The translations under genes and the position numbers were made by a program. From Parcubacteria group bacterium Gr01-1014_3 (GTDB lineage: Bacteria; Patescibacteriota; Minisyncoccia; UBA6257; WO2-44-18), in NCBI GenBank assembly GCA_007376445.1, contig VMGF01000001.1, forward strand, positions 252,203 to 316,202: a stretch of DNA of 64,000 bases, in the 5' to 3' direction. The first letter of the stretch is position 1. The number at the start of each line of letters is the position of its first letter. Under the pieces are notes generated by a model. It was not told where the DNA came from, made no database searches, and worked only from the letters and a program-made list of their open reading frames with translations. Below are positions 3,566 to 62,824 of this stretch, in pieces.

Positions 3566-4276
3566 TTAACGAATTATTAGGTTGGTTGAGGCCGAAGCGC
3601 TTTCGAGAGCTTGGCGGATATTTTGCGCGCTGGCCTCGAGTTTAACTGAAGTTCCTCTCGATAGTCCCCGTGTATCTAAGTCTAGTATATTCGATGCATT
3701 TTCCTCGGTAGCAGCGCCGTTGGCGGTCCAAGTGAAGTTGATCTGATCTAGCCCAGTAATGTTAAAGAAATAAAGGAGCGTTTTTATCGGATTAAGTCCG
3801 GCGGATATTAAATTACCTGGAAATGGAGCATCAATCACCAGTTCCGGATTAACTATCGGCACGGTGATAGTTTTGGATACATCATTACCCTTATAGCCAA
3901 CTACGACTGCCTGAACCGTGGCGTCACCTCTTAGAGAGTCAGCTATGAAAGAAAAACTACGCAATCCCCTGCCCGATTGTCCTAGTTCGTCATTGACGTA
4001 CCAGCGGATCGTATATGGCGCGAGATCAACGAGACGATTATTTTCCAAGAGATCTACGCCGGCCACTACACGCGCTCCGTTAACTGGCAGGACTTTCCCG
4101 GCGTAATCCGGCGGAACGCTATTGCCCGCTTTCCAGCTGAGGAGAAGCTCTGGCGCCTGCTGGGCGGTAGAAGAATTAGGAATCAAGAATAAAGAATAAA
4201 GAATAAATACAATAAAAATTAACCCATAATTCTTGATTCTTGATTCTTGATTCTTAGCCACTGATTCTTGATTCAT
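3566..4276 (-). CDS. Secreted hypothetical protein (T4SS-like locus)
   Basis: It has an N-terminal hydrophobic segment. Its 5' end is built from (aagaatc)n heptamer repeats and their inverted copy. Confidence 0.45.
   Translation of the reverse strand: MNQESVAKNQESRIKNYGLIFIVFILYSLFLIPNSSTAQQAPELLLSWKAGNSVPPDYAGKVLPVNGARVVAGVDLLENNRLVDLAPYTIRWYVNDELGQSGRGLRSFSFIADSLRGDATVQAVVVGYKGNDVSKTITVPIVNPELVIDAPFPGNLISAGLNPIKTLLYFFNITGLDQINFTWTANGAATEENASNILDLDTRGLSRGTSVKLEASAQNIRQALESASASTNLIIR
4178..4273. repeat. (aagaatc)n heptamer tandem repeat with inverted partner (gaatcaagaataaagaataaagaat ... attcttgattcttgattcttgattctta)
   Basis: Perfect 7-bp periodicity. It overlaps the 5' end of ORF 3566..4276. 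Confidence 0.6.
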
Positions 4277-4284
4277 AATTCTGT

Positions 4285-4656
4285 TTATTTTGAAGTGCTT
4301 ATTGGTATTTTCGGCACACCGGGCTTTTTAACGGGCATTTTTTGGGCAATGGACTGGATCTTTTGAGCTACTTGGCTCTCCGGATGGCGGTCGGCATAGA
4401 TCACCATACAGACCCCGATTGTTCTTAACGGCAGAGCGCCGACATAGGGAATAAGCTCAAGCAGGTTCATCGATAAATCATACTCCGCCCCTATCCCTTT
4501 CATTCTAAAATATAATTGGGTTATCGGAAATGTCAGGATATCGATGATCCAAAAGTCGTCTAAGGCCAGGAAAACCAGGATGATGCCGATAATATCGGTA
4601 AGCGCGATATAGCAAACCAGTAAAAAGGCGATGGGAAGTGAGATTTTGGGCTCCAT
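4285..4656 (-). CDS. Small polytopic membrane protein
   Basis: A 123-aa protein with two or three hydrophobic helices, in the same operon direction as the VirB4-like gene. Confidence 0.4.
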   Translation of the reverse strand: MEPKISLPIAFLLVCYIALTDIIGIILVFLALDDFWIIDILTFPITQLYFRMKGIGAEYDLSMNLLELIPYVGALPLRTIGVCMVIYADRHPESQVAQKIQSIAQKMPVKKPGVPKIPISTSK

Positions 4657-4680
4657 GTGAGTAATGAATTATTTAAATAC

Positions 4681-4745
4681 TAATTTTAAATTTTGAATTA
4701 TAAATTTTAATTTAATTTAAAATTGAAAATTTAGAATTTATAATT
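4681..4745. repeat. AT-rich (aatttta/gaaaatt)-type periodic repeat block, intergenic
   Basis: taattttaaattttgaattataaattttaatttaatttaaaattgaaaatttagaattta. Partially palindromic. Confidence 0.5.
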
Positions 4746-6474
4746 ATTTGTTTTCCAATATCTGTTCCGGCTTGGTGGTGATCACCTGGTCTTCCCCATA
4801 CGAAGCTACTATCTGGATAGCCACGTGATTCAAGCCGGCGAAAAACAAACCCAATCCGATCTCTGCCTGAAGCAGAAGGTTTTTTTCGGCTTCGCTGAGA
4901 TTAAAAGTTTTCGCTACGCTATCGATCATCGCCGGAGATTGTTTCAAAAGAAGCTGCATTGAAGAGTTGGTGATGATCGGGCGGCCGAATGGCGAGCTCA
5001 AGAAGTCTTCCACGTCTTGAGTGATAGTGCTGATGCCGAGGAAATATTTTCTGGCTCTCTTTACCAGGGCGAACAAGAAAGAAGCGCCATCCGGATATTT
5101 CATCATCCACCAGGCCTCGTCGATAATCAGAACACGGCGTTTTAATTGAGCGCGGACGATATTCCAAATGAAGTTGAGTACGATATACATCGCGATCGGA
5201 CGAAGTTCGTCCTCAAGGTCACGGATCGAAAATACTACAAGACGATTTTTGACATCAATATTGGTCGGCTGATTAGTGAAGCCAGCATAACTTCCTTTGG
5301 TGAAGCGATAAAGACGTTCGGCGATCTCGCGGCCGCCCTCCATATTTTCTAAAACAGCCTGCAGGTTTTCCATGAGTGGCGGCCTGGCGGTCGAGAAATC
5401 TTTACCAGGCACGATATCAAAAGCCGCGTAAGTTTCTGAGATTGCGCGGTCCAGCAAGGCTTCTTCTTGCGGATTGATCTCGCCAAGCATCAGTTTTACT
5501 AAACCGGTCAGATTTACCACGTGAGACTTCAAAACATCCGCCGGATCTTCACCTTGCGGGATCACCGGAATATCAAAAGGGTTGATGTGGCTTTGCGAAG
5601 CTAACGAAATCTTAAAGAAGCTCCCACCCACCACATTAGCCAGCTGTTGATATTCATTTTCCGGATCAATAATCAAAACATCGGTGCCAGTCATCAAAAG
5701 ACGAAGCGCTTCGAGTTTGGTGGCGTAAGATTTACCGGCGCCGGATTTGGCAAAGATGACCATATTGGCGTTTTCGAGCGAGAAGCGGTCAAAGATGATG
5801 AGGGTGCTGTTGTGGCGGTTAATGCCGTACAAAATTCCTTCATCCGAGGTTAGTGTGGCCGAGACAAACGGAAAGAACGAGGATAATGGGCTGGAATTGA
5901 GCGGGGTGTGAATGTCCAGCTGGTCAGTGCCGAGTGGTAGAACCGAAGAGATGCCTTCGATCTGCTGGAAAAGCGCCGGCTTAGCGTAAACCAACTTACT
6001 TTCCAGGACATAAGTGATCTCGGACTCGAGTTTATTCAGATTTTCGATGGTGTCGGCATAAAGCGTGATATAAACTCCGACATTAAAAAGGTGCTCTTGT
6101 CCCTGCTGGAGAGAATCTCGGAGCGCTTCGATGTCTTGAATGGCAGTTTCTAAGACCGGATTCCGGACTAAGCCCTTCTCTTGCTGTTCAGCGATCTCCG
6201 CCTCCACGATGGCGGCTTTTTTACGGAGATTTTTGAGCGCCATCGGCGTGTCCACCGGATGAACGACGACGGAGATATCTAAAAGATTCGGCAGATTGAT
6301 GATCGGCGAGAACCAACCGGTCGAGAGATAACGAGGATAGGTGAAAATAAAAAGCGTCTTCGCGAATTTATTGCCGAGCTTCACATAATTCGGATTTACC
6401 TCAATAGCCGGTGGGGCGATGATGTTTTTTATTTCTTGTTCCATTATTTTATTGCGCTGGTTCGGCTCGGGCAA
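4744..6474 (-). CDS. VirB4/TrbE/CagE-like type IV secretion ATPase
   Basis: Walker A (FAKSGAGKSYATK) and Walker B (RVLIIDEAWWMM) motifs in a protein of about 576 aa. Gene order and size match VirB4-like ATPases of Gram-positive/CPR T4SS-like loci. Confidence 0.8.
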   Translation of the reverse strand: MPEPNQRNKIMEQEIKNIIAPPAIEVNPNYVKLGNKFAKTLFIFTYPRYLSTGWFSPIINLPNLLDISVVVHPVDTPMALKNLRKKAAIVEAEIAEQQEKGLVRNPVLETAIQDIEALRDSLQQGQEHLFNVGVYITLYADTIENLNKLESEITYVLESKLVYAKPALFQQIEGISSVLPLGTDQLDIHTPLNSSPLSSFFPFVSATLTSDEGILYGINRHNSTLIIFDRFSLENANMVIFAKSGAGKSYATKLEALRLLMTGTDVLIIDPENEYQQLANVVGGSFFKISLASQSHINPFDIPVIPQGEDPADVLKSHVVNLTGLVKLMLGEINPQEEALLDRAISETYAAFDIVPGKDFSTARPPLMENLQAVLENMEGGREIAERLYRFTKGSYAGFTNQPTNIDVKNRLVVFSIRDLEDELRPIAMYIVLNFIWNIVRAQLKRRVLIIDEAWWMMKYPDGASFLFALVKRARKYFLGISTITQDVEDFLSSPFGRPIITNSSMQLLLKQSPAMIDSVAKTFNLSEAEKNLLLQAEIGLGLFFAGLNHVAIQIVASYGEDQVITTKPEQILENK

Positions 6475-7165
6475 TTTCTAATCTTTTTTTCTCAATCGAT
6501 TCTGGGTTGTATAGATTATAAAAAAGTTCCACGATTTCTTCGTTGGCCAAAAGTACCGATCTTAAGCCCATAGAATTCAAGCCACCGATAACCTCGTCTA
6601 CTCTTTGGGTTAATTGCTGGAGATTCTGCTGGAATTGCGGACCCATTTCTGAATTAGCCGAGGTAGAAGCCTTTTTGCCAAAGATTCCAAAGATCTTATT
6701 AAAGATTCCGGCGCCGCCCTTGGTTGGAAGAAAGACCGGATCAAAAGGAACGACCACGAAAAAAGTTTTCGACATGATCGGATTTTGAGAAACGAAGCTT
6801 TGCACGAAATCGTGGTATCCGGTTAATTGCGTCTTGAGCAGCTCGTTTGGTTCTTGAGCCTGGATCCCCTCCAAACGGCGCAAATAGTCCTCAATATTCA
6901 AACGGCGGGAATGAATAAAGACCTGCACGGAAAAATTCAGTGAATTTAGAAAATTTTGGTAAGCATAAGTAAGCAGTCCTTGCTCCTCCTCGGACTTTAA
7001 ATCAAAATTAACTCCGCTGACCATCAAAATTTGGCGCAATCCGCCATTTTTTAAGATCAGGGTGTTCTCCTGGACTGTTTCAATATTAATAAACTTCTGC
7101 GTCGGTTGAGATTTCGCTTGTGCCATCTTCCTTATTATAACAAACTTCACCAATATACGAATCAA
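6449..7165 (-). CDS. Hypothetical protein of the T4SS-like locus (start probably at the internal Met MAQAKSQ, about nt 7126)
   Basis: A contiguous ORF immediately upstream of the VirB4-like gene. No recognisable motif. Confidence 0.4.
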   Translation of the reverse strand: MIRILVKFVIIRKMAQAKSQPTQKFINIETVQENTLILKNGGLRQILMVSGVNFDLKSEEEQGLLTYAYQNFLNSLNFSVQVFIHSRRLNIEDYLRRLEGIQAQEPNELLKTQLTGYHDFVQSFVSQNPIMSKTFFVVVPFDPVFLPTKGGAGIFNKIFGIFGKKASTSANSEMGPQFQQNLQQLTQRVDEVIGGLNSMGLRSVLLANEEIVELFYNLYNPESIEKKRLEIARAEPAQ

Positions 7166-7182
7166 GCACTAATATACGAACA

Positions 7183-7650
7183 CTAGAATGACGAGTCTTT
7201 AGAATCTTGCGCCTGTTTCAGCGCTGTCGGTGAAGCCTTTTCTCGCCCAACGATACCGGCTGTGGTCGTCAAAAGTTTGGTCCAAAGGCTCTTAATTGAA
7301 GTTTTCCCTTCAGGTGAGCTCATTTGGCCGGCTTTAGGCAGGCGGATTTCGGTCAATTTAAGCGTGGCGTCTTCTCTTTGCCAGAGGTACATTCTTGGCT
7401 GCCAAAAGTAGCTCACTATGCTCTTTAAAATGACCGGCAGAGGCCGTCCGTTGAACTTAATAAACGCTAAAGCCGCCGCCGCGGTGCCCAAAATAACAGT
7501 GATAATCAGCCAAAGCCAGATTTGGAGCACAAAGAACAAGAAAAAGCTGATTAGCGAGGCCACGCCTATATATAGGAACTGCTTGAGTGTGAGCGGGCCG
7601 ACTATCTTAGTTTCCGTTTCGATAAATTGTGGAACCTGAAATTGGCTCAT
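7183..7650 (-). CDS. Two-TM small membrane protein (VirB3/PrgI-like candidate)
   Basis: A 155-aa protein with two adjacent TM helices. Its position near the VirB4-like ATPase is as expected for VirB3-like proteins. Confidence 0.4.
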   Translation of the reverse strand: MSQFQVPQFIETETKIVGPLTLKQFLYIGVASLISFFLFFVLQIWLWLIITVILGTAAAALAFIKFNGRPLPVILKSIVSYFWQPRMYLWQREDATLKLTEIRLPKAGQMSSPEGKTSIKSLWTKLLTTTAGIVGREKASPTALKQAQDSKDSSF

Positions 7651-8285
7651 TGGTTTTGGTCTGGCTTAGGAAAATTTATCGGCAATCTCACGATTGGTGG
7701 ACGGAGGGGCTGAAAGGTTGGGCGATTTTGCGGGATCGGGGGCGGGGTTGGAATTTGGCGAACCGGGGGTTCTACGACAACCTTCGGAGGTTCAACTCTT
7801 ATGGCTATTGGTGTTTGGATTGGTTGGGCTGGTGCCGGAGTTATGCTGTCATTCTGATCCGCCGGCTGGCGGAGAAGAATCTCGAGTTCCTTCGGCTGCG
7901 CCTCAGGATGACCGGGCCCCGGTTTCGCGAAATAAATTAATTTAATATCTATATCCGCCTCCCTTCTCAGTTGTCCTTCGATCGGCCGGAGAATTTTTTC
8001 TTCGATCTCTTGGGCGATATTTTTGGCGCTATTAAAATCTATATCCAACTCTTCGGAAAGAATATTAATAAATTCACCCGGCTCAATATCTTTGGTAACT
8101 AACCGGAGAATGGTAGTCGGAATTATTTTTACTAATGGCCCGGCCATATCCAGCCTTTCATTAATATCAATAACCACATAAGTCGCCCTCTCGGAGGTCA
8201 GCCATTCGCGGATTTTATCCGGAAGCTCGTCAAATTTTTTTCTTAAATCAGCTTTATTCATCATCGCCGATAGTTTGTTGGGCAA
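7647..8285 (-). CDS. Hypothetical protein with proline-rich C-terminus
   Basis: An ORF with a PPxxP-rich tail, translationally coupled to its neighbours. Confidence 0.45.
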   Translation of the reverse strand: MPNKLSAMMNKADLRKKFDELPDKIREWLTSERATYVVIDINERLDMAGPLVKIIPTTILRLVTKDIEPGEFINILSEELDIDFNSAKNIAQEIEEKILRPIEGQLRREADIDIKLIYFAKPGPGHPEAQPKELEILLRQPADQNDSITPAPAQPIQTPIAIRVEPPKVVVEPPVRQIPTPPPIPQNRPTFQPLRPPIVRLPINFPKPDQNQ

Positions 8286-11717: not shown

Positions 11718-11719
11718 AG

Positions 11720-12475
11720 TTAGATTGTCAGGCCATTTTGCGACATAAATTGAGTGATCTTTTGCCCTAGGCTGGCAAGCTGGTTCTGAATGTCCGGCAT
11801 CATTTTACCGGCCACCAGAGCTTTTAGCGGGTCATCTTCATAATTGGCTAGGCTGGTGAAGATGTTTTTTTGAATAGTCAGCAATTTGATTTCTTCTTGA
11901 TGAATGCCGGATAGTACTTCCGGAACATTCAGTGAGTAAAACTGATCAAGCGTCTTTTCGTAGGCCAGTACTAGCTTCTGGAAGTCCTCAGTGTTCGGTT
12001 TTTGAAAGTCTATACCGAGAGTAGAGAAGTTACCGGTAAGTATTGATCGGAAATTTTTTAAATAATTACCCCAAACGGTTTTATCGGAAGTCTTTATGAT
12101 CTTTAACGCGGCAGCTTCGATGCTTGGGCTAAGATCGGGATAGTTGATATTGCCAAGCTCTGCCTCTAAAACTTTTTGCGCTAACTTATCCGGCTCAAGC
12201 GCGTTGATTTGTTGTTGGCCGCCAATGACCGAAGGACCTTCCGGATTTAATTTAATAATTTCTTCGGTGATCTTTTGAGAGAGTTTATTTAGCTCAGCGC
12301 TGGTGGCTTTTGGTTCATTCATATCTATGAAAGAAGGCAGCTGTTGCGGATTGGCTGAGAGATTAGCGATTCCCGTTTCTGTACCAGCGCCGTTTTTTTC
12401 ACTAACGATAAAAATTGCCAGAGTAGCCGAGCCGGCCAGGAGTAAAATCGCGAGTATGTTTTGAAATTTGAACAT
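11720..12475 (-). CDS. Secreted hypothetical protein
   Basis: Signal peptide MFKFQNILAILLLAGSATLA. Confidence 0.45.
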   Translation of the reverse strand: MFKFQNILAILLLAGSATLAIFIVSEKNGAGTETGIANLSANPQQLPSFIDMNEPKATSAELNKLSQKITEEIIKLNPEGPSVIGGQQQINALEPDKLAQKVLEAELGNINYPDLSPSIEAAALKIIKTSDKTVWGNYLKNFRSILTGNFSTLGIDFQKPNTEDFQKLVLAYEKTLDQFYSLNVPEVLSGIHQEEIKLLTIQKNIFTSLANYEDDPLKALVAGKMMPDIQNQLASLGQKITQFMSQNGLTI

Positions 12476-13021: not shown

Positions 13022-13846
13022 TTAGAAATGATTTGCTAGGGTTTTTAACATATCAATATCGAGATTTTGGGGGCGAATGTCGGGTTTTAGGCCTATTTGT
13101 TCGAGAATTTTAGTAATTTCAGCCTTATTTTTACCAAGCCCTTCGGTTTTACTCAGGGCAAGTCCCTCAGATAAGTTATTCAGCAGGGTCTTTCTAGGCT
13201 GCTTAAAAGCGATTTTTATGAATTTATAGTATCGTTCCGCCTCCTTGATTCTTAATTCTTGATTCTTGATTCTTAATGTTATTATTGCCGAATCAACTTC
13301 CGGCGCCGGATCAAAATCGGTGGATTTCAGATTCATCAGGATCTTCGGTTCAGCCCAGAACTGCGTGGCGGCCGAAAGCAGATTCATCCTGGGTGGTTCG
13401 GCAATTATTCTTTCCGCAACCTCTTTTTGGATCATTAAGATGGTGAGTGCCGGTTTTCCGCCAGCTGGCGGATTCAGTTCGCTTAATACGCGCAGCAGTT
13501 TTCCGGTGATATAGTAAGGGATGTTTCCAACCAGTTTCCAGTTGTCAGTTTTCAGTTTTTCAGTTAAATCGGGGAGAATTTTTAATGCATCGCCTGTCAG
13601 TATTTCAAACTGATTAACTGTAGCGCTAGCGTAACTCATTAACTGATTCGCTAAACGCGCGTCTTTTTCGATACCGATGAAATTACAACCGACTTTTCGG
13701 CATTCTTCGATCAGAGGAATGGTTAACGCTCCCTTGCCCGGCCCGACCTCGATGACGGTTTCGCCAGTTTTCAGCTCTAAAGACGCGATTATCTTTTGGA
13801 TCGCGGCTTTATTTTTTAGGAAGTGCTGACCTAGTTTTTTTGGCAT
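13022..13846 (-). CDS. rsmA: 16S rRNA (adenine1518/1519-N6)-dimethyltransferase
   Basis: N-terminal KKLGQHFL motif and a SAM-binding VIEVGPGKGALT motif. It contains an in-frame (ttcttga)n repeat encoding RIKNQELRIK. Confidence 0.85.
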   Translation of the reverse strand: MPKKLGQHFLKNKAAIQKIIASLELKTGETVIEVGPGKGALTIPLIEECRKVGCNFIGIEKDARLANQLMSYASATVNQFEILTGDALKILPDLTEKLKTDNWKLVGNIPYYITGKLLRVLSELNPPAGGKPALTILMIQKEVAERIIAEPPRMNLLSAATQFWAEPKILMNLKSTDFDPAPEVDSAIITLRIKNQELRIKEAERYYKFIKIAFKQPRKTLLNNLSEGLALSKTEGLGKNKAEITKILEQIGLKPDIRPQNLDIDMLKTLANHF

Positions 13847-14252: not shown

Positions 14253-16094
14253 TTACCAAGTATCTTCGATATACGAATCTTCTTCGTTCGGAAGATTGTT
14301 TTTGTTGCCGCTGAGGTCGGCAAATTCGGTCAGTTCCGGCGGAATTTCATACACAAATCTTGATGGAATGTGCGTAAAAGTGAGGCAGAGCCGTTTTCTT
14401 GCGCGAGTCATGGCCACGTACATCAGACGCCGCTCTTCCTCGATTTCATCCAATGATCCATAGGACATTTGATGGGGCAAAAGGCCTTCATTACATCCCA
14501 TTACGTAAACTTGGTCGAATTCCAGGCCCTTGGAGAGATGAATGGACATGAGATGGACAGGGTTTAGGGTATAGCGATTAGCGTTTAGGGATTCATTGGC
14601 CGGCATATCGTTGGCTTGTAGCAATAGCACCCGTTCCAAAAATTCCGGCAAGGATTTAAATGTGCCGGCAAAAACTATTAACTCGTTTATGTTTTCAGTC
14701 CTCTCTTTTACATTGTCGAATTTTTTTCCGAGGTGATCAAAGTAGTTGGTGTTTTCCAGGAAATAATTTATCAGTTCTAGGATCGAGAGTTTTTCGCCGA
14801 GGCGCTGAAGCTCCCCGATCAGCTCGCCGGTGATCTTTTTCGGAAAAGTTTTTTCCAGGCGGTCAATGCTGACACTATCCTTCGGATTGGAAGCAACGCG
14901 TAAACCGGCAAGAATATCTTTTACCTCTTTTCTTTGATAAAAACGCAGTCCGCCGAAAATTTTATATGGAATCTGGTTCATGATCAGCGATTGCTCGATC
15001 GCGCGGGATTGCGCGTTGGTCCGGTAGAGAATGGCCGTAGTTTCACTATGACCATGACTATGACCAATGACCAATCCTTGTTTTTTATTGTCATTGTTAT
15101 TTGTCATCGTCAAGATGTTTCTTGCGACATACCGCGCTTCCTCATCGGCGTCATAAGCCTTAACAACCCAGATCGGATCTCCGGCCTCATTATCGGTCCA
15201 AAGAGTTTTCGGAGTTTGCATGGAATTTTTCTTGATCAGCGCTGAGGCGGCGTTAATAATGTTGGCGGTAGAGCGGTAATTTTGCTCCAGCTTTACGATT
15301 TTCGCCTTCGGCCAGTCCTGTTCGAAGTTCAAAAAATTGCGGAAGTCCGATCCGCGGAAACGATAAATGCTTTGCGCGTCATCGCCGACGACGCTGATAT
15401 TTTGGTGTTTTTCAGCGAGCAAGCGGATCAGGCGATACTGGCTGGTGTTTATATCCTGATACTCATCTACCAGGACCTGTTGGAAGCGGTTTTGATATTT
15501 GGTTAAGATTTCCGGATGATCCTCAAAAAGACGCACCGGTTTTTCTATGAGGTCATCAAAATCAAAGGCATTATTTTCCCTAAGAGCTTGTTCGTATTTA
15601 TTGAAAAGATGAATGAGCTGCGGCTCCAGATATTCTTTGGGCGCGATCAGTTCATTTTTTATTGAGGAAAATTTATTCTGAAGCTTTATGGGATTGGCGG
15701 CCTCCTTGGAAATGTCCAGCTGTTTCAAAATTTGGCGGATTAAACTTAAGGAATCGTCGTTATCATAAATCGTGAAGTAAGCGTTCCGGCCGAGTAGCTT
15801 CGCCTCTTCTTTCAAGATTCTTACTCCCAGCGAATGGAAAGTACCTATAAACAAATTTTCAATTTTCAATTTTAAATTTTCAATTCGGTTTCGCATTTCA
15901 TTGGCGGCTTTATTGGTAAAGGTTATCGCGATGATGTTGGCCGGGTTTACTCCCCGTTCGATGATCTTCATCAGGCGAGTGGTTAGGGTCTTGGTTTTGC
16001 CGGAACCAGCGCCGGCGGCGATCAAAATAGGCCCATTTCCATGGTCTACAGCCTCTTGCTGCCTGTCATTCAGTCGATTGTTATTTTGCTCCAT
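14253..16094 (-). CDS. ATP-dependent DNA helicase, UvrD/PcrA/Rep family
   Basis: It carries helicase motif I (AGAGSGKT), motif II (DEYQD) and the rest of the motif series. Internally there are an in-frame (aattttc)n repeat (RIENLKLKIENL) and an (atgacca)-like repeat (GHSHGHS). Confidence 0.85.
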   Translation of the reverse strand: MEQNNNRLNDRQQEAVDHGNGPILIAAGAGSGKTKTLTTRLMKIIERGVNPANIIAITFTNKAANEMRNRIENLKLKIENLFIGTFHSLGVRILKEEAKLLGRNAYFTIYDNDDSLSLIRQILKQLDISKEAANPIKLQNKFSSIKNELIAPKEYLEPQLIHLFNKYEQALRENNAFDFDDLIEKPVRLFEDHPEILTKYQNRFQQVLVDEYQDINTSQYRLIRLLAEKHQNISVVGDDAQSIYRFRGSDFRNFLNFEQDWPKAKIVKLEQNYRSTANIINAASALIKKNSMQTPKTLWTDNEAGDPIWVVKAYDADEEARYVARNILTMTNNNDNKKQGLVIGHSHGHSETTAILYRTNAQSRAIEQSLIMNQIPYKIFGGLRFYQRKEVKDILAGLRVASNPKDSVSIDRLEKTFPKKITGELIGELQRLGEKLSILELINYFLENTNYFDHLGKKFDNVKERTENINELIVFAGTFKSLPEFLERVLLLQANDMPANESLNANRYTLNPVHLMSIHLSKGLEFDQVYVMGCNEGLLPHQMSYGSLDEIEEERRLMYVAMTRARKRLCLTFTHIPSRFVYEIPPELTEFADLSGNKNNLPNEEDSYIEDTW

Positions 16095-22325: not shown

Positions 22326-22407
22326 AAAAACGCAAGATAATTTTAAATTCTCAATTTTAAATTTGAAATTAAATTAAAATTTATAATTAAAAATTTAAAA
22401 TTAAAAA
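22326..22407. repeat. AT-rich (aatttta/aaaattt)-type periodic repeat block, intergenic
   Basis: ataattttaaattctcaattttaaatttgaaattaaattaaaatttataattaaaaatttaaaattaaaaaa. Confidence 0.5.
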
Positions 22408-47053: not shown

Positions 47054-49423
47054 ATGTCACCACAGAAGAAAAAAATCACAAGCAAAATAGTGAAAATATT
47101 GAAATTCGGCGGCTCATCCGTTGGTTCGGCTGAGCGGATTAAGAATGTATGTAGAATTATTTATAATTCTACCCTGAGCTTGTCGAAGGGCGCCCGAATC
47201 GCCGTGGTAGTTTCGGCAATGCAAGGAGTAACCGACAAGCTTTTGGCTTTAAAGATCAAAGAAGTAAAAGAAATTCATCAAAAAGCCGCCGCTGAGCTGA
47301 AAGTGCCTTTCCCGGCGTTCATTTTTCAAGAATTAGAAGCGGTGGAGAGCGGCGCCCGGATGCTTGGCGACTTCTCTCCGATGGTGATGGATCGGGTGGC
47401 GAGTTTCGGCGAGCGATTGTCGGCGGCCTTAGTGGCTTCCTATTTACATAAAAAACTACCGGCGGAAGCCTTGGACGCGCGCGAGGTGGTAAAAACCGAT
47501 AACAATTTTCAAAACGCGGCCGTGGATTTCCCGGCGACCAATCGTGCAATTCAGAATTATTTTAAAAAACATCCGGCAGTCCAGGTAATTACAGGATTTA
47601 TCGGTTCCACTAAAGATAATAAAACCACGACCCTCGGCCGCGGTGGTTCAGATTATTCCGCGGCGATCTTCGGCGCGGCGCTTGGCGTGGAAGCGATCGA
47701 GATTTGGACGGACGCCAACGGAATTTTGAGCGCCGATCCGCGAGTTGTCCCGGAGGCTAAGACTTTACCGGCTGTGAGCTATGAAGAAGCTTTTGAGATG
47801 GCGTACTTTGGCGCCAAGGTTATTCATCCGGCCACGATGGTGCCGGCGATTAAAAAAAGTATTCCGATCGTGATTAAAAATACTTTTAATCCGGCGCATT
47901 CCGGTACATTCATTGGAAATCGAAAATTGAAAATTGAAAATTCTGGTAGTCCCGCTAAGAACATTTCTTCACTTGATGGAATGGCTTTAATTACGGTGGG
48001 CGGTACGGATCTCGCTGGCGTGCCTGGTACGGCGGAGCGGGTTTTTCGCGCGGCAGCTAAAGAAAAAGCCAATATAGTCTTAATTGCCCAGGCTTCTTCC
48101 GAGCACACGATCTGCTTCGCGGTAAAGGAAACGGAAGCGGAACGAGCTATTCGCGGCTTGAAAGCGGAATTTGATCTCGAAATTGGCCGGGGGAAGATGT
48201 CGATAGAAGTTCGTAAGGGCCAGAGCGTAGTAGCGGTAGTCGGTGACGGAATGCGAGGCGTTCCAGGAATCTCCGGTAAAATTTTTGATGTATTGGGCAA
48301 AGAAAAAATTAACGTTAATGCTATCGCTCAGGGCGGCTCAGAGAAAAATATTTCATTAGTAGTTCAAGAAAGCGATAAGGCGGTGGCCGTGCAGGCAGTT
48401 CACCGGATTTTGTTTGAAAAATCATTAACACCGGCTATTTTCATTATCGGCGCCGGCAATGTTGGCGGGGAGCTTCTTAGACAGCTTAATGAAAGAATCA
48501 AGAATCAGGAATTAAGAATCAGGATTTGTGGAATTGCCGATTCAAATAAAATGCACCTTGAGGAAGGCGGCATTGATTTAAAAAATTGGAAAAAACCGCT
48601 GGCCGCATCCGCAACCAAAATGAACCTGGATAATTTCTTAAAGGAGGTTCAAAAAAACAGGTCGGATAAGAAAGTTTTAGTGGATTGCACGGCGAGCGAA
48701 CCGATCGCGAAAAGATATTCTGAATTCGTGGCGGCGGGGTGCGATATCGTGACTCCGAATAAAAAGGCCAACGTGCTCCCGATGGCGAAATATACTGCTT
48801 TCCGGAAAGTTTTGGAAAAATATGGAAAAACTTTCCATTATCAGGCCAATGTCGGCGCCGGGTTGCCGGTTTTGGACTCGGTAAAAGGTTTAGTATCGGT
48901 GGGCGATAGCATAAAAAAGATCGAGGGAATTTTCTCTGGTACCTTGAGCTACCTTTTTAATAATTTCGATGGTAAGAAAAAATTCAGCGAACTGGTTTTG
49001 GATGCGAAAGCGAAAGGCTATACCGAGCCGGATCCGAAAGAGGACCTGAGTGGGCAGGATGTTGGTAGGAAACTTCTGATCCTGGCGAGAGCTACTGGCC
49101 TACCGGCTGAACTTTCGGAGGTGGTTTTAGAAAATCTGGCTGAATATAATGATCAGCAGATGGCGAATAAGCTGAAAAAGGCTAAGGCCAAGAAGTGCGT
49201 CCTACGATATGTTGGTTCTGTACAAGGTGGTCGGTTATCCGCTAAATTAAAGGAGATTCCGCTAGATAACCCATTAGCCCATGTAAGCGGAGCCGATAAT
49301 ATAGTCGCAATCTATAGCGGGTACTATAAAAATCAGCCGTTGGTCATAAAAGGGCCTGGCGCCGGAGCAGAAGTGACCGCTGCGGCCGTGTTGAGGGGTA
49401 TTATAAGAGCAATTCAAAATTAA
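47054..49423 (+). CDS. thrA: Bifunctional aspartokinase / homoserine dehydrogenase
   Basis: N-terminal aspartokinase (KILKFGGSSVGS), ACT domains, and a C-terminal homoserine dehydrogenase Rossmann fold (IIGAGNVGGELL). The start is likely ATG 47054; the listed ORF starts at 47018. It contains in-frame (gaaaatt)3 and (aagaatc)n repeats. Confidence 0.8.
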   Translation: MSPQKKKITSKIVKILKFGGSSVGSAERIKNVCRIIYNSTLSLSKGARIAVVVSAMQGVTDKLLALKIKEVKEIHQKAAAELKVPFPAFIFQELEAVESGARMLGDFSPMVMDRVASFGERLSAALVASYLHKKLPAEALDAREVVKTDNNFQNAAVDFPATNRAIQNYFKKHPAVQVITGFIGSTKDNKTTTLGRGGSDYSAAIFGAALGVEAIEIWTDANGILSADPRVVPEAKTLPAVSYEEAFEMAYFGAKVIHPATMVPAIKKSIPIVIKNTFNPAHSGTFIGNRKLKIENSGSPAKNISSLDGMALITVGGTDLAGVPGTAERVFRAAAKEKANIVLIAQASSEHTICFAVKETEAERAIRGLKAEFDLEIGRGKMSIEVRKGQSVVAVVGDGMRGVPGISGKIFDVLGKEKINVNAIAQGGSEKNISLVVQESDKAVAVQAVHRILFEKSLTPAIFIIGAGNVGGELLRQLNERIKNQELRIRICGIADSNKMHLEEGGIDLKNWKKPLAASATKMNLDNFLKEVQKNRSDKKVLVDCTASEPIAKRYSEFVAAGCDIVTPNKKANVLPMAKYTAFRKVLEKYGKTFHYQANVGAGLPVLDSVKGLVSVGDSIKKIEGIFSGTLSYLFNNFDGKKKFSELVLDAKAKGYTEPDPKEDLSGQDVGRKLLILARATGLPAELSEVVLENLAEYNDQQMANKLKKAKAKKCVLRYVGSVQGGRLSAKLKEIPLDNPLAHVSGADNIVAIYSGYYKNQPLVIKGPGAGAEVTAAAVLRGIIRAIQN

Positions 49424-51623: not shown

Positions 51624-52881
51624 CACCAACGGAAAATCCAAGCCGGTGGATTTTAAAACCGCGCTTTTACGTGGTTTGGCGGAGGACGGGGGACTCTACA
51701 TGCCCAACGAGTTGGGCAATTTTCAATTTTCAATTTCTAATTTTCAATTTTGGAAGATTTTAAAAAACTTTATAGATATTCCAGAAAAGGATTTAGAAAA
51801 AATCTGCGCGGAAGCATTTAATTTTCCGGTGCCGCTAGTGCGAATAAGCAAAGATATACATGTCTTGGAGCTGTTTCACGGCCGAACACTTTCCTTCAAA
51901 GATTTCGGCGCGCGATTTATGGCGCGAGTGATGGATTATTACATGAGAATAAAGAATCAAGAATTAGGAATTAAGGAAAAATTAAATATTGTTGTCGCAA
52001 CCTCGGGCGACACAGGGAGCGCCGTGGCCAACGGATTTTATGGTTTATCCAACATCAAAGTCTTTGTTTTGTATCCGAGCAAACGGGTGAGTGAGCTGCA
52101 GGAAAAACAGATGACGACTTTAGGAAAAAATATCGTAGCCTTGGAGGTACAGGGTGACTTTGATGATTGTCAGCGTCTCGCCAAGCAAGCCTTGGCCGAT
52201 TCGAATCTGAGAAAAGAGAAAAATCTTTCTTCGGCGAACTCTATAAATATTGGCCGACTTTTACCGCAGATGTTTTATTACTTTGAAGGCGTAAAACAAC
52301 TTGGTAAACAGGCGGTGTTCGTGGTGCCAAGCGGGAATTTCGGCAATCTGACTGCCGGTTTGTTTGCCAAAAATTTAGGTTTGCCGATTGAGCGGTTTAT
52401 CGCGGCCGTTAATATCAATTCCGCTATCCCCCGTTTTTTGGAGTCTGGCAAAATGGAAATTCGCAAAACACGTTTAACGCTCTCTAACGCGATGGACGTC
52501 GGAAGCCCCAGCAACTGGGCTCGGATTGCCGATTTATATGAGGGAAATCGGGAAAAAATTCAGAAAGATATTTCGGCAGTTACGATCAGCGAAGAAGAGA
52601 CGCATGAAACAATTAAAAAGGTTTACCAGGAGTTTGGCTATATAGCCGATCCGCACACGGCCGTTGGTTTGGCGGCGGCGATGAAAGATACAAGCCGATC
52701 TCCAAAAATAGTCTTAGCGACCGCTCACCCGGCTAAATTCAAAGAGACCGTGGAAGAAGCAATTGGAAGCAAAATCAGTTTGCCACCCGCCTTATCTAAA
52801 CTACGTGGAAAAACTAAAAAAAGCATAGTAATCGGTAAAAACTATTCGGAATTATACTTACAACTTACGACTAATAACTAA
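51610..52881 (+). CDS. thrC: Threonine synthase
   Basis: PLP-lysine region LELFHGRTLSFKDFGARFMA and a glycine-rich SGNFGNLTAG loop. Its N-terminal variable region contains the (aattttc)5 repeat. Confidence 0.85.
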   Translation: MLFYSTNGKSKPVDFKTALLRGLAEDGGLYMPNELGNFQFSISNFQFWKILKNFIDIPEKDLEKICAEAFNFPVPLVRISKDIHVLELFHGRTLSFKDFGARFMARVMDYYMRIKNQELGIKEKLNIVVATSGDTGSAVANGFYGLSNIKVFVLYPSKRVSELQEKQMTTLGKNIVALEVQGDFDDCQRLAKQALADSNLRKEKNLSSANSINIGRLLPQMFYYFEGVKQLGKQAVFVVPSGNFGNLTAGLFAKNLGLPIERFIAAVNINSAIPRFLESGKMEIRKTRLTLSNAMDVGSPSNWARIADLYEGNREKIQKDISAVTISEEETHETIKKVYQEFGYIADPHTAVGLAAAMKDTSRSPKIVLATAHPAKFKETVEEAIGSKISLPPALSKLRGKTKKSIVIGKNYSELYLQLTTNN

Positions 52882-52885
52882 TAAC

Positions 52886-53332
52886 TTATATTCCGGTACT
52901 GCCAAAACCACCTCGGCTTTCGCCTTCAAGATTTTCTACCTCTTCCCATTCGATCTTTTCATAGGGACGGAAAATTATTTGCGCGATCCGGTCGCCGCGT
53001 TCGATCGTGACCGGTTTATCGGTGAAGTTATAAATTGCCGCGCGGTACTCATCTTTATTGCCGGAAAAATCCTCGTCACCGATGCCGATGCCGTTAGCCA
53101 ACATAAGTCCTTTTTTGGGAAGCGAGCTTCTTGCAGCGAGCATCACGTAGTGATTTTTCGGAGGTTTAATACAGATGTTTAACGGAACTAGCGTAAGCTT
53201 GCCCGGTTCAGCGATAGTTGTTTCGCGCGCCGCGCAATCCAAAGCGGCAGCCCCAGGAGTTTTATATTCCGGAAGCGGAAGAGATTTATCGATACGCTTG
53301 ATTTTCGCTTTCATTCCTTTAATATTAACCAA
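52886..53332 (-). CDS. dut: dUTP diphosphatase
   Basis: dUTPase motifs (GIGDEDFSGN, RGDRIAQII) in a 148-aa protein. Confidence 0.8.
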   Translation of the reverse strand: MVNIKGMKAKIKRIDKSLPLPEYKTPGAAALDCAARETTIAEPGKLTLVPLNICIKPPKNHYVMLAARSSLPKKGLMLANGIGIGDEDFSGNKDEYRAAIYNFTDKPVTIERGDRIAQIIFRPYEKIEWEEVENLEGESRGGFGSTGI

Positions 53333-57008: not shown

Positions 57009-57081
57009 GGGTGCGTAGCTCAGTGGTTAGAGCAGTCGTCTTATACACGACCGGTCCCTGGTTCGAATCCAGGCGCACCCA
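57009..57081 (+). tRNA. tRNA-Ile with unmodified-type anticodon TAT (UAU)
   Basis: Acceptor gggtgcg/cgcaccc, D-arm gctc-agtggttag-agc, anticodon stem gtcgt/acgac with loop cuTATac, and T-arm cctgg-ttcgaat-ccagg. It is preceded by an extended -10 motif TGcTATAAT. Confidence 0.7.
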
Positions 57082-57096
57082 CTCAAAAGATTTTTC

Positions 57097-59241: not shown

Positions 59242-59347
59242 ATAACGTGTTATAATGAGGCGCACTTTAACAAAGGCTAAACCTAATTCGCTATGTGGCG
59301 AATTAGGTCGCCCGATCAAATCAGGGATTTGATTTAGGGAGGTTCTA

Positions 59348-59926
59348 ATGAAAGCGCTTTTGATGGTTGATCCGCAGAATGATTTTTGCCCGGGTGGTTC
59401 TTTGCCGGTTAAGGACGGCGACCAGGTGATGGAGCCGTTAAACCGGATGATGGAATACGCCAAGAAAAATAACTGGGTTTTGGCCGCATCGCGCGACTGG
59501 CATCCGAAAAAGACCAATCATTTCGCCAAATATGGCGGAAAATGGGCGGTACATTGCGTGAAGAATACCAATGGCGCCAAATTTCATCCGGCGCTCAAGG
59601 TTACGAAAGACGTGATGGTTTTCTCCAAAGGTATGCTGAAGGACCAGGATGCTTACTCGGCTTTCCAGGGATATTCCAAGTTTGGTGAGACATTGGCGGA
59701 CTACCTGAAGTCTTATGGAGTTCAGGAGTTATATGTTGGCGGCCTAGCTACCGATTATTGCGTGAAGGAAAGCGTGATTTCGGCTATCAAAGAATGTTTC
59801 AAGGTTTATCTTCTTCTTGACGCGTGCCGGGCAGTAGATATCGAGCCGGGCGATGGTGATCGGGCGATTGAAGTAATGAAGCAAGTCGGCGCGATTCTGA
59901 CCACCACCAAAAAGGTGATGGCATGA
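59348..59926 (+). CDS. pncA: Nicotinamidase/pyrazinamidase (isochorismatase family)
   Basis: MVDPQNDF motif, a catalytic Cys in GLATDYCV, and it overlaps the downstream pncB by 4 nt. Confidence 0.8.
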   Translation: MKALLMVDPQNDFCPGGSLPVKDGDQVMEPLNRMMEYAKKNNWVLAASRDWHPKKTNHFAKYGGKWAVHCVKNTNGAKFHPALKVTKDVMVFSKGMLKDQDAYSAFQGYSKFGETLADYLKSYGVQELYVGGLATDYCVKESVISAIKECFKVYLLLDACRAVDIEPGDGDRAIEVMKQVGAILTTTKKVMA

Positions 59927-61214: not shown

Positions 61215-61622
61215 TTAATAAATCGCTACCGGCCAGGAGTTGTCTAGGGCATAAACGCCTCCACCGATGCCAACGATGATGAGTAGGGCCGCGAGAATGG
61301 CGATGTCTAGTTCATATCCGCCAACCAACTTTTGGCCACGGCTCATTTTCCAGAGAGCGGCGACGATAATATCCACGGCTAGCAAGATAGCTATGAGTTG
61401 CGTGCCAACTCCAAGAATCAAAGCCAGACTACCGAAGAATTCCACATGAGCGACGATCGTACCCCAGAAAAAACCTGGCTTGAAACCCATCATGGAAAAA
61501 CTTTGCCAAGTCGCCGGCAAATTCCGCAGTTTTGGCCAGCCGTGAGCCAAAAATATCGCTCCGATGATCAATCGGGCAATCACTAAATAATAATCACTGA
61601 AACCTGAAAGTAATGTAATCAT
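61215..61622 (-). CDS. DoxX family membrane protein
   Basis: Four TM helices including the typical ARLIIGAIFLAHGWPK motif. Confidence 0.7.
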   Translation of the reverse strand: MITLLSGFSDYYLVIARLIIGAIFLAHGWPKLRNLPATWQSFSMMGFKPGFFWGTIVAHVEFFGSLALILGVGTQLIAILLAVDIIVAALWKMSRGQKLVGGYELDIAILAALLIIVGIGGGVYALDNSWPVAIY

Positions 61623-61684
61623 ACAAAAAGTATATCATATTAACTTTTGCCAAGCGCTAAATTTTATAGTATAATCGGGGAAAT

Positions 61685-61759
61685 GGCCTCATCGTCTAAC
61701 GGCTAGGACAGCCCCCTTTCACGGGGCAAATAGGGGTTCGATTCCCCTTGAGGCTACCA
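61685..61759 (+). tRNA. tRNA-Glu (anticodon TTC)
   Basis: Acceptor ggcctca/tgaggct with a G1-U pair, anticodon stem gcccc/ggggc with loop cuTTCac, T-arm agggg-ttcgatt-cccct, and an encoded CCA. Confidence 0.8.
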
Positions 61760-61768
61760 AAAGTTTTT

Positions 61769-62824
61769 ATGAAAATCTTATCTATCGAAACGAGTTGCGA
61801 TGAGACCTCGGTCGCTTTAGTTGAGGCGAAGGGCGGATTAAAATATCCGGAGTTTAAGGTTATCGAGAATATCGTCTCCTCGCAGATCGCCGTGCACCGG
61901 CCATTTGGCGGCGTGGTGCCTAATCTCGCCAAGCGGGAACACCTTAAGAATCTTCCTAAGATTCTACAAAAATTGAAAATTAAAAATTTAAAATTTAAAA
62001 TTGATGCCGTCGCGGTCACCGTTGGCCCCGGTCTCGAACCGGCGCTTTGGACCGGAATCGAATATGCCAAGCAGCTATCAAAGGATTTAAATAAGCCGCT
62101 TATCGGGGCGAATCATATGGAGGGCCACCTATATTCTAATTGGTTACCGCGTAAGATTGCCGCGCTTGCTTCTACGCGTAGAAGCGCTCGCAATGACGGA
62201 ATACGATTCCCAGCGATTGCGTTGGTGGTGAGCGGGGGACACACGATACTTTTGAAAATGGATTCGCTGACCAAGTGGAAAAACTTGGGCGAAACGCTTG
62301 ATGACGCGGCTGGAGAAGCTTTTGATAAAGTCGCGCGAATGTTGAAGTTGCCATATCCGGGCGGGCCAGAAATTCAAAAACTAGCCCTTCGACAGGCTCA
62401 GGGTAAACATCCGAAAGGCACGATCAAGTTCCCACGGCCGATGTTGCGAGACGATAATTATAAATTCAGCTTCTCTGGATTAAAAACCTCCGTGCTTTAT
62501 TATCTTCGCGATAATCCGAAAGCTAAAAAAGAAGATGTGGCGGCCTCATTCCAGCAGGCGGTTCTGGATGTGCTGGTTGGTAAAACCATGCGCGCGGCCA
62601 GAGCGTACCGCGCGAAATCGGTTTTGCTTTGCGGTGGCGTGTCGGCCAACGTGGCATTGCGGGAATCTTTGAAAGAATCAGCAGAAAAATATGGCATGAA
62701 ATTTTTTGTGCCGGAATTTGAATATAATACCGATAACGCGGCCATGATCGCCGCCGCGGCGTATATTCAGTATTTAAGAAAGAAGAAGTTAAAACTGGAA
62801 GCAAATTCAAATTTAAGTTTATAA
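61769..62824 (+). CDS. tsaD: tRNA N6-adenosine threonylcarbamoyltransferase TsaD
   Basis: Motifs LSIETSCDET and HRPFGGVVPNLA, plus a His-rich metal site (NHMEGH). The start is set at ATG 61769; the listed ORF start at 61748 overlaps tRNA-Glu. A linker region contains the (gaaaatt)-type repeat. Confidence 0.85.
   Translation: MKILSIETSCDETSVALVEAKGGLKYPEFKVIENIVSSQIAVHRPFGGVVPNLAKREHLKNLPKILQKLKIKNLKFKIDAVAVTVGPGLEPALWTGIEYAKQLSKDLNKPLIGANHMEGHLYSNWLPRKIAALASTRRSARNDGIRFPAIALVVSGGHTILLKMDSLTKWKNLGETLDDAAGEAFDKVARMLKLPYPGGPEIQKLALRQAQGKHPKGTIKFPRPMLRDDNYKFSFSGLKTSVLYYLRDNPKAKKEDVAASFQQAVLDVLVGKTMRAARAYRAKSVLLCGGVSANVALRESLKESAEKYGMKFFVPEFEYNTDNAAMIAAAAYIQYLRKKKLKLEANSNLSL

Follow-up and report, generated by a model that had tools for sequence, protein, structure and literature searches.

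The window analysed here, a stretch of 64,000 nucleotides (64 kb), belongs to Parcubacteria group bacterium Gr01-1014_3 (taxid 2017173), a metagenome-assembled genome of the Candidate Phyla Radiation (CPR)/Patescibacteria from groundwater, and it contains about 14 tandem-repeat loci with a period of 7 nt, compared with about 1.3 expected. ThrC and the UvrD-like helicase encoded here match proteins of that organism with 100% identity. Long open reading frames (ORFs) cover approximately 91% of the window. Its genes comprise a type IV secretion system (T4SS)-like cluster (1.6-12.5 kb) as well as rsmA, a UvrD/PcrA helicase, glutamine synthetase, NusA, an H+-pyrophosphatase, trigger factor, ClpP, TyrRS, thrA-asd-aroK-thrC, FtsH, RecG, TsaD and seven tRNAs. 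The heptanucleotide tracts are found mainly inside such genes: 11 of the 14 loci lie in ORFs, two are intergenic and one runs across the thrC stop. The 11 in-frame loci reside in RsmA, the UvrD/PcrA helicase, ThrA, ThrC, TsaD and one protein of the T4SS-like cluster. The corresponding host ORFs, as assigned by Pfam, are RrnaAD/RsmA at 13022-13846(-), a UvrD/PcrA-like helicase at 14253-16094(-), the ThrA aspartokinase-homoserine dehydrogenase at 47018-49423(+), ThrC at 51610-52881(+) and TsaD at 61748/61769-62824(+). The tracts and the peptides that they encode are as follows.

4171..4207 (-): AAGAATA array, arm 1 of an inverted pair (TRF); (AAGAATA)5 on the forward strand, read as TATTCTT in ORF 3566-4276(-); hydrophobic stretch FIVFILYSLFLI
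4229..4282 (-): arm 2 of the same pair; (ATTCTTG)7.7 on the forward strand, equal to AAGAATC in the coding sense; spans the start of ORF 3566-4276(-); charged peptide MNQESVAKNQESRIKN
4681..4745, intergenic: AT-rich palindromic element of AATTTTN/NAAAATT heptamers, between the stop of 4744-6474(-) and the start of 4285-4656(-); hairpin z -2.60, inverted partner z 8.3
13244..13274 (-): AAGAATC tract in rsmA (TRF), RIKNQELRIK, in the linker of the methyltransferase and C-terminal domains
13532..13565 (-): AAAACTG tract in rsmA (CAGTTTT on the forward strand), TEKLKTDNWKL
14559..14593 (-): interrupted CTAAACC-type module, uvrD site 3, LNANRYTLNP
15045..15112 (-): inverted TGACCAT/TGACCAA arrays, uvrD site 2, TMTNNNDN ... 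LVIGHSHGHS
15854..15885 (-): GAAAATT tract, uvrD site 1, RIENLKLKIENL
22326..22407, intergenic: second copy of the AT-rich palindrome, ~66 nt, in the opposite orientation, between 22432-23256(-) and 21087-22280(-); hairpin z -2.38, inverted partner z 12.3
47912..47942 (+): GAAAATT tract, thrA site A, NRKLKIENS, in the linker after the amino-acid-kinase domain
48493..48524 (+): AAGAATC tract, thrA site B, ERIKNQELRIRI, after the GAGNVGG NAD-binding helix
51717..51751 (+): (CAATTTT)5, antisense GAAAATT, thrC tract 1, NFQFSISNFQF
51946..51975 (+): AAGAATC tract, thrC tract 2, RIKNQELGIK
52856..52888 (+): ACTTACA/ACTAATA tract covering the end of thrC (C-terminal tail plus stop) as well as the stop of convergent ORF 52886-53332(-)
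61968..62004 (+): GAAAATT/TAAAATT tract in tsaD, KLKIKNLKFKI

The enrichment was assessed by running Tandem Repeats Finder (TRF) on the window and on order-3 Markov shuffles, with overlapping rows merged. The merged clusters numbered nine at period 7, four at period 14 and two at period 32, against 1.2, 0.13 and 0 in the shuffles; both period-32 clusters are AT-rich arrays that TRF also calls at period 7. Copy numbers at the 14 loci range from 4.1 to 9.6. Within the 64 kb, 5 loci carry AAGAATC and 6-7 carry GAAAATT-type units, one more heptamer array was observed in the 8 kb past the window, and the clustering of tracts along the window is mild (variance/mean ~1.4, hand count in 2-kb bins). 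All runs reported in an initial annotation of this DNA were recovered by TRF and in the raw sequence within a few bases, its host-gene assignments agreed with the Pfam result, and codon-level translation reproduced its peptides (RIKNQELRIK in rsmA, RIKNQELRIR and RKLKIEN in thrA, RIKNQELGIK and NFQFSISNFQF in thrC, RIENLKLKIENL and GHSHGHS in uvrD, and KLKIKNLKFK in tsaD). The tracts at 13532-13565, 14559-14593 and 52856-52888, together with the inverted partner of the ATGACCA run at 15090-15112, are additional to that list.

The loci occur in two forms. Single arrays of 4-5 units (28-37 nt) account for 10 of the 14, and in the remaining four an inverted double array folds into a hairpin, namely at 4171-4282 with AAGAATC-type units, at 4681-4745 and 22326-22407 with GAAAATT-type units and at 15045-15112 with TGACCAA-type units. 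DNA-fold z scores at the hairpin loci range from -2.4 to -4.2, and the partner-arm z reaches 4.8-13.5 at inverted arrays versus at most 2.6 at single arrays. The pair at 4171-4282 (DNA fold z -4.19, inverted-partner z 13.5) takes up the first ~35 codons of ORF 3566-4276, and its arm 2 lies directly after the stop of the upstream ORF 4285-4656(-). In the predicted N-terminus of the protein, the charged peptide of arm 2 and the hydrophobic stretch of arm 1 together look like a signal anchor. The loci at 4681-4745 and 22326-22407 represent two copies of one ~66-nt palindrome whose cores differ at 6 positions. In uvrD site 2, the arms at 15049-15071 and 15090-15112 comprise 23 nt with 78% complementarity (fold z -3.40).

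The behaviour of the units with respect to the reading frame was analysed at codon level. The GAAAATT unit gives KLKIEN-type peptides in the sense orientation (uvrD, thrA, tsaD) and NFQFSI in the antisense orientation (thrC), and it also occurs in intergenic DNA. Because a 7-nt repeat cycles through the three frames every 21 nt, every stop triplet of a unit falls in all frames. GATTCTT, the antisense form of AAGAATC, carries TGA; genic AAGAATC is always in sense, and the lone antisense arm, at 4171..4207, is the stop-free AAGAATA variant, in which a C>A change abolishes the TGA that GATTCTT would place in every frame. Sense GAAAATT would give TGA at every junction, and the would-be in-frame TGA is replaced by CGA/TCT in thrA, TTA/TTG in uvrD and TTA in tsaD. 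In thrA, the perfect run ends at CGA and TCT, precisely the would-be in-frame TGA positions. Over 285 kb of CPR loci, a pool that takes in loci chosen for containing (AAGAATC)3, the consensus unit read in coding orientation contains a stop in 26 of the 92 intragenic tracts, and read the other way in 72 of 92, compared with 31% for all heptamers. Outside the tracts, single copies of AAGAATC and GAAAATT (all rotations, both strands) are at or below expectation, so that the signal is the array and not the word. A DNA uptake sequence (USS/DUS) was also considered and rejected, as single motifs are not enriched.

All tract sites are variable in orthologue alignments and correspond to loops, linkers or termini. 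The TsaD tract aligns without gaps to T. maritima TsaD, with no length change. In RsmA, the AAGAATC tract is 1 aa shorter than the interdomain linker of B. subtilis KsgA and the second tract is 2 aa longer, and in UvrD, compared with PcrA, site 1 shows no change, site 2 a gain of 12 aa and site 3 a loss of 3 aa. ThrC tract 1 lies in a region 8 aa shorter than in E. coli ThrC, and tract 2 adds 8 aa relative to E. coli ThrC and 6 aa relative to the closest relatives. The earlier suggestion that the runs cause no large length change is accordingly retained for TsaD, RsmA and UvrD sites 1 and 3, but not for ThrC tract 2 and UvrD site 2. In an AlphaFold (AF2) model of ThrC with a mean pLDDT of 88.8, tract 1 is predicted to be mostly coil and tract 2 to form a C-terminal extension of helix 97-119. 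The proposal of the initial annotation that these are DNA-level repeats tolerated in frame is borne out by the period of 7 rather than 3, the presence of both orientations, the intergenic copies and the visible filtering of stops. The data show that the arrays arise and persist as DNA, not as protein motifs, and that genic arrays last only in permissive loops, linkers or termini, in a stop-free orientation or with point variants that remove the stop.

The closest kin of the organism are Candidatus Harrisonbacteria and groundwater Patescibacteria, with 60-80% amino-acid identity. The relatives compared here are loci L121-L127, L210-L213 and others, L125 being the closest relative (82% nt identity). 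Codon-threaded alignments of thrC site 1 revealed a CAATTTT array in the window, L121, L122 and L127, CAAATTT in L123, a CAAAGCT/CAAAATC array in L125 and an array of the 9-mer AAAGTCCAT in L126; the same 9-mer is tandem at window positions 12985-13013. This 9-nt tandem family, AAAGTC(C/T)AT, is itself dispersed, with members at window 12985-13013, at 19533-19555 of L208 (a second assembly of the same organism) and at thrC site 1 of L126. Site 2 of thrC is empty in L125 and L126, carries AAGAATC in the window, L121 and L123, and carries CAAAATC in L122. Sites A and B of thrA hold GAAAATT and AAGAATC in the window versus AAAGTTC and AACTTAA in L122, and further thrA sites that bear tracts in L122 and L123 have none in the window, where they are 6-9 aa shorter. 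At the first rsmA site, AAAACTG in the window (13532..13565) corresponds to an AAAATTA-type array in L210 (LKLKIKNFKL). Across 60 relatives, all three UvrD sites are hypervariable and act as hot spots of insertion, and at sites 2 and 3 of P0143 and P0167 modules related to 15045..15112 were identified.

Several modules were also shared among non-orthologous positions. The module CTAAACGCTA..CGCTATACCCTAAAC, encoding LNA(K/N)RYTLN(P/A), is present in uvrD of the window, in thrA of L122, at a different site in thrA of L123 and in thrC of L127. In all four of these CTAAACC modules the in-frame TAA has become TAT, one among the seven single substitutions that would yield a non-stop triplet. The SKSKAQ module (CAAAATC/CAAAGCT) occupies thrC site 1 in L125 and site 2 in L122, and the AAGAATC tracts of rsmA, thrA and thrC in the window have a TCA>TTA variant and a frame common to all three. 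In L211, a ~66-nt hairpin with arms of ACGAATA heptamers is present at all three hot-spot loops of uvrD (~1335-1400, ~2154-2230 and ~2682-2750); it encodes TNKRIRKFExxSLFAD, and the 120-nt windows holding each copy have RNA folds of -28 to -39 kcal/mol. In the few cases available, the shared modules suggest block copying. At the nucleotide level, thrC tract 1 of the window is 92% and 89% identical to that of L121 and L122, with 11 of 12 third positions matching, compared with 67% over the rest of thrC (third positions 0.43-0.46). This tract therefore evolves much more slowly than synonymous sites or is repeatedly reset to the consensus. Three readings fit the pattern alike: the sequence itself may be under purifying selection, conversion may homogenise the copies, or the tract may have spread recently.

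In relatives, GC-rich palindromes of 20-30 nt were found in frame within the heptamer tracts of thrC and uvrD at four sites, listed here with the coordinates of the respective contigs.

L122 thrC, 10133-10162: 30-nt insert TCCGCCGAAGGCCGATCCCTCTCCGAAGGA
L127 thrC, ~4124-4144: 21-nt insert
L127 thrC, 4712-4741: related 30-mer within a CTATACC/CTAAATC tract
L210 uvrD site 1, 2708-2728: 20-21-nt insert CCTGCCTGCCGGCAGGCAGG, in the tract orthologous to window 15854-15885

The nested inserts of L122, L127 and L210 encode the peptides SAEGRSLSEG, HAYRQAG and PACRQAG, and PACRQAG/PAGRQ-like peptides are present in several UvrD homologues. Deleting each insert restores the uninterrupted tract length, which indicates that no target duplication accompanies them; in thrC tract 1 of L127, the tract without its insert is a perfect (CAATTTT)5 of the same length as in the window. 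We also considered the heptamer arrays as stacked 7-bp target-site duplications of the nested palindromes and rejected this, as deletion of the insert leaves no extra unit. Small dispersed repeats (SDR) of Nostoc punctiforme, 21-27 nt long, non-coding and often located within tandem heptameric repeats, were reportedly described by Elhai et al. in 2008. The nested palindromes resemble SDR as tiny non-coding repeats in heptamer arrays, and differ in that they occur here in the relatives only, in another taxon and with other sequences. The window contains one GC palindrome insert only, in tsaD, and it is not within a tract. There, a 14-aa in-frame insert (KIAALASTRRSARN, window 62153-62194) that is absent from T. 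maritima TsaD is encoded by DNA with a perfect 18-nt palindrome (GCTTCTACGCGTAGAAGC, 62168-62185), which is like the GC-rich mini-palindromes of the relatives and lies outside any tract.

The stability of the tracts was evaluated by comparing assemblies. Over 20 kb with six tracts, further assemblies of this organism show 100% identity, although they possibly come from the same sample and say little on population variation. The tsaD tract (61968..62004) is identical in the independent assembly L207, and L123 and L124, which derive from different samples, are identical. A Logan contig of the same organism (L209) stops within the 4229-4282 tract, at window position 4256, and a contig end there is typical of a repeat-induced assembly break. 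Tracts are present at orthologous sites in NCBI, ENA, JGI and Logan assemblies. An artefact of assembly is excluded, and none of the assemblies compared showed a length difference of a single unit. The initial annotation had offered contingency (phase variation) as an alternative, for which no support was found and against which it was observed that the tracts are short and interrupted, reside in single-copy core genes and are identical across assemblies and samples.

The one length polymorphism detected is an in-frame difference in ThrC relatives, where two alleles of a 90% cluster differ by 7 aa. Between L212 and L213 (98.1% identical over 4.8 kb), the thrC loop tract differs by exactly 21 nt, equal to three (A/T)(A/T)GTCA(A/T)-type units, and this difference sits in a ~55-nt patch of clustered substitutions. 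Of the 110 alignment columns that differ between the two contigs, 91 fall in 7 clusters, including 864-990, 1229-1257 and 3681-3739, and 12 columns are terminal overhang. This distribution suggests that short-patch recombination is frequent in these CPR populations. Allelic recombination is the simplest carrier of the 21-nt difference, because like patches without indels are present elsewhere in the same contigs.

A scan of 596 Gb for exact (AAGAATC)3 retrieved at least 120 stretches from more than 120 species-level genomes in many phyla, compared with ~0.3 expected under uniform base composition. Among the matches listed, 23 belonged to Patescibacteria and the rest to Bacteroidota, Verrucomicrobiota, Acidobacteriota, cyanobacteria, Xenorhabdus and Polynucleobacter. 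TRF analysis of the matches listed (830 kb) identified 371 arrays with period 7, compared with 37 and 62 for periods 6 and 8, and 81 of these 120 (AAGAATC)3 loci had at least two arrays. Unrelated control loci, 79 in number and taken from a metagenome scan for ThrC relatives with one close relative (L127) among the matches listed, gave 10 period-7 arrays per 100 kb. In relatives of the window, stretches of 8.6, 12.6 and 17.2 kb carried 3, 7 and 10 tracts, respectively, and the pooled CPR loci 141 in 285 kb. From the cross-phylum distribution of (AAGAATC)3 and the period-7 excess, the phenomenon is general, in agreement with the over-representation described for heptanucleotide SSRs (Mrazek 2007, as cited in PMC4679880 and PMC4692102). 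In the GC-rich Acidobacteriota Vicinamibacterales (GC 0.64-0.70; L004, L022, L027, L040), AT-rich arrays of AAGAATC, AATCATG, AAGAGTC and AAGATTC were observed. Near-variants of AAGAATC were also seen among the matches listed, of which fifth-base changes (AAGANTC, with GANTC kept) seemed commonest.

Heptanucleotide long simple sequence repeats (SSRs) are over-represented in many bacteria, and slippage at the polymerase footprint has been proposed as their source (Mrazek 2007, as cited in PMC4679880 and PMC4692102). TAACTGA repeats are described from Beggiatoaceae, cyanobacteria and Bacteroidetes (PMC4679880) and GGGAATC/GGGGAYT repeats from Xanthomonas and Nostoc (PMC4692102), with regulatory roles suggested for the TAACTGA and GGGAATC repeats in these studies. 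The tracts of the window share with long SSRs the period-7 excess, a range of 2-8 units, some inverted pairs and a patchy cross-phylum spread. However, the long SSRs described before are reported to be mainly intergenic and under-represented in coding DNA, whereas 65-79% of the CPR tracts lie in or across long ORFs (85% ORF coverage); the present tracts also have no G-quadruplex potential and no bias to sites just upstream of start codons. The short tandemly repeated repetitive (STRR) heptanucleotides known from heterocystous cyanobacteria (Mazel et al. 1990, as cited in PMC4692102) are likewise 7-nt tandem units, with few families over many loci and with function and mechanism unexplained. 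STRRs have been described mainly from intergenic DNA and RNA genes, in contrast to the tracts analysed here, which are found in a CPR host with a small genome, consist mostly of other units (AAGAATC, GAAAATT) and reside mostly in frame in housekeeping ORFs. The STRR units of heterocystous cyanobacteria include CCCCAGT, TTGGTCA and CAACAGT, and the run TGACCAATGACCAA at 15062-15075 is what we take to be the reverse complement of the STRR2 unit TTGGTCA. Assignment to STRR sensu stricto was rejected, since the organism is a member of Parcubacteria and the main units differ, with just 15062-15075 matching that complement.

Rickettsia palindromic elements (RPEs), which are restricted to Rickettsia, measure ~150 bp and fall into ten families, each coding for a conserved peptide (PMC10969869). 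The present tracts resemble them as non-genic repeats located in frame in unrelated housekeeping genes at tolerated sites, especially in the case of 15045-15112 and the 66-nt hairpin of L211, but they measure 30-110 nt, consist of heptamer arrays and in 10 of 14 loci lack an inverted partner. The comparison with RPEs drawn in the initial annotation is useful as an analogy, given the in-frame residence and the four palindromic loci of 14, and not as membership, because size, sequence and taxon differ. Phase-variable contingency loci of Haemophilus and Neisseria (PMC2651432) are also non-triplet tandem repeats in ORFs; those tracts are long, perfect, length-polymorphic and located in surface or restriction genes, whereas the tracts described here are short, interrupted, length-stable and located in core metabolism. 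No description of heptamer repeats in CPR, or as in-frame residents of housekeeping genes, was found in the literature searched. The tracts are a known repeat class (heptanucleotide SSR/STRR) in a new host group and in a new niche, in frame in essential genes, and the site-fixed switching of units, the sharing of modules, the maintenance at nucleotide level and the nested palindromes are new facts from the relatives.

The genomic surroundings of the tracts were also characterised. In L208, rnpA, yidC, dnaA and dnaN are located directly before window position 1, and the positive GC skew throughout the window fits with this arrangement, so that the window start probably adjoins the replication origin. 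The corresponding region of L208 (12759-16031, 0.03-3.3 kb before window position 1), with rnpA, dnaA and dnaN, has 20-21-nt tandem repeats in the intergenic flanks. The T4SS-like cluster (1633-12475) encodes PrgI, a TraC-like protein, a VirB4/TraG P-loop ATPase, a faint T4SS pilin match and several ORFs without a Pfam match, and its order beside rsmA-uvrD is kept in L210. Between 16000 and 21000, the GC content is 0.50-0.54 versus ~0.45, over glutamine synthetase and two long ORFs without Pfam matches, and at 18481-19449 long ORFs overlap on both strands. An ORF with a homing-endonuclease-associated HNH_repeat (27916-28776) and a free-standing LAGLIDADG endonuclease ORF (33136-33579) were identified, near which a short ORF (32238-32750) matches sigma-70 region 3 only. 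A tRNA-Ile with anticodon TAT (UAU) is encoded at 57009-57082; such tRNAs are rare in bacteria, where AUA is normally read by a lysidine-modified CAU tRNA. Finally, a 73-nt dispersed repeat with two hairpins is present at window 59269-59341 and at L208 20032-20104, in copies that are 97% identical and ~67 kb apart. The window copy lies directly upstream of the ribosome-binding site of ORF 59348-59926 and gave no Rfam match at gathering score.

With moderate confidence, we favour the explanation that template-directed copying inserts, replaces and homogenises heptanucleotide arrays of the STRR/long-SSR class in blocks, with selection only filtering the products. Polymerase slippage in a 7-nt register would be the ultimate source of the tracts. 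Growth unit by unit in place is improbable, because a 7-nt step frameshifts an essential gene; blocks of 21-35 nt would be installed, swapped and homogenised, most likely by template-directed copying among dispersed tracts or alleles, either through gene conversion/recombination or through template switching during replication. Selection would act solely as a filter for frame, stops and loop tolerance, the tracts could then become landing sites for smaller GC-rich palindromes, and a benefit to the host would not be required. We infer block copying because a 7-nt step is lethal here, sister genomes differ in unit and interrupted modules recur elsewhere; a selfish or mobile nature of the tracts, as well as the copying mechanism, enzyme, donor and direction, belongs to this interpretation and not to the observations. 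A purely local account, in which each tract formed by in-place 7-nt slippage followed by drift, nothing was copied, units are shared through a sequence preference of slippage and the shared variants reflect convergent stop avoidance, retains a minor but appreciable share of the probability. In many bacteria the commonest long SSRs are heptanucleotide ones, for which footprint slippage has been proposed (discussed in PMC4679880 and PMC4692102), the period-7 excess extends to unrelated phyla and the strain polymorphism amounts to exactly 3 units, all of which agree with it. It is opposed by the fact that a single-unit step frameshifts essential genes, so that 4-5 units arising in place need rare 21-nt events, by the interrupted modules at non-orthologous sites with TAA>TAT in 4/4 CTAAACC modules, by sites where all units differ from those of the sister genome, and by the clustering of substitutions beside the 21-nt indel.

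Other explanations were considered less probable. That the arrays are functional DNA or RNA motifs, for instance for protein binding (OB-fold/cold-shock), nucleoid organisation, termination/attenuation or translational pausing at linkers, is unlikely: conservation of thrC tract 1, at every codon position, greatly exceeds that of the remaining gene, four hairpin loci sit at gene boundaries or in loops and regulatory roles have been suggested for TAACTGA and GGGAATC repeats (PMC4679880, PMC4692102), yet many different units are in use, the closest relative has another unit or no tract at the same site, single heptamers are not enriched, positions follow protein tolerance rather than gene starts or ends and no T-run follows the hairpins. 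We regard as slightly less likely again a set of miniature transposable elements of the inverted-repeat type (MITEs), or RPE-like elements, moved by a transposase encoded elsewhere in the genome. The hairpin forms, the several copies of a ~66-nt palindrome in L211 uvrD and the two ~66-nt AT-rich palindromes of the window are in line with such elements, and the in-frame residence in housekeeping genes recalls RPEs (PMC10969869); against them stand the 10 of 14 loci that are single arrays, the lack of a target-site duplication at comparable filled versus empty sites, the small size (30-110 nt, below that of typical MITEs) and the absence of a transposase within the 64-kb window. Selection at the protein level for low-complexity, helix-friendly or heptad-like loop peptides, with the DNA period as a by-product, is very improbable. 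It could draw on the equivalence of 21 nt and 7 aa, on RIKNQELGIK (thrC tract 2) being modelled with high confidence as a helix extension and on the 4171-4282 arms, which yield a charged n-region and a hydrophobic h-region like those of a signal anchor, but peptide selection needs neither identical codons nor a 7-nt register, the units also occur in intergenic DNA and reversed with unrelated peptides, and orthologues have unrelated sequences at the same sites. The lowest probability is given to contingency loci or an assembly artefact, even though non-triplet repeats in ORFs are a classic phase-variable signature and one short contig ends within a tract: short interrupted tracts in single-copy thrA, thrC, tsaD and rsmA, where a one-unit slip frameshifts, no length difference among assemblies or samples, and recovery at orthologous sites from four sources of assemblies speak against both.

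The favoured explanation of block copying by a templated process also has evidence to contend with. Neither an enzyme nor a donor template for the process was found, and the 64-kb window encodes no transposase, reverse transcriptase or RAYT-like protein. Unit families and module sharing were counted over 64 kb plus ~8 kb of flank rather than genome-wide, and the module sharing, a handful of cases, could in part stem from tracts evading stop codons convergently. That tracts recur at the same loops may be explicable by selection alone, as these are perhaps the sole tolerated places, and the conservation of thrC tract 1 could reflect a function of the DNA or RNA sequence. Since the 21-nt polymorphism sits within one recombination patch among several, it may have been imported as an allele and not be a new insertion. 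A broader version of block copying, which we put forward tentatively as possible though doubtful, is that a hierarchy of ultra-small protein-less mobile or templated modules (heptamer arrays, inverted-array hairpins and nested palindromes) circulates in permissive loops of essential genes across Patescibacteria, and perhaps other heptamer-rich phyla, and is actively copied or homogenised, which would keep the modules more constant in nucleotide sequence than synonymous sites.

Heptanucleotide repeats have been known since 1990 and are over-represented in many bacteria, but their origin and purpose are unexplained and they have been studied almost solely in intergenic DNA. The gene-dense CPR genome pushes heptamer arrays into essential genes, and because the reading frame forbids single-unit slippage there, the surviving tracts would record block installation, replacement and filtering. 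The mechanism is testable by comparative genomics and by read-level groundwater time series. The tracts can mislead annotation, alignment and phylogeny of marker genes, and together with the nested palindromes they enlarge and diversify the loops of CPR proteins and break short-read assemblies. If true, the hierarchy of modules would be a form of selfish DNA, and a way for loops to diversify in minimal genomes, that has not been described before.

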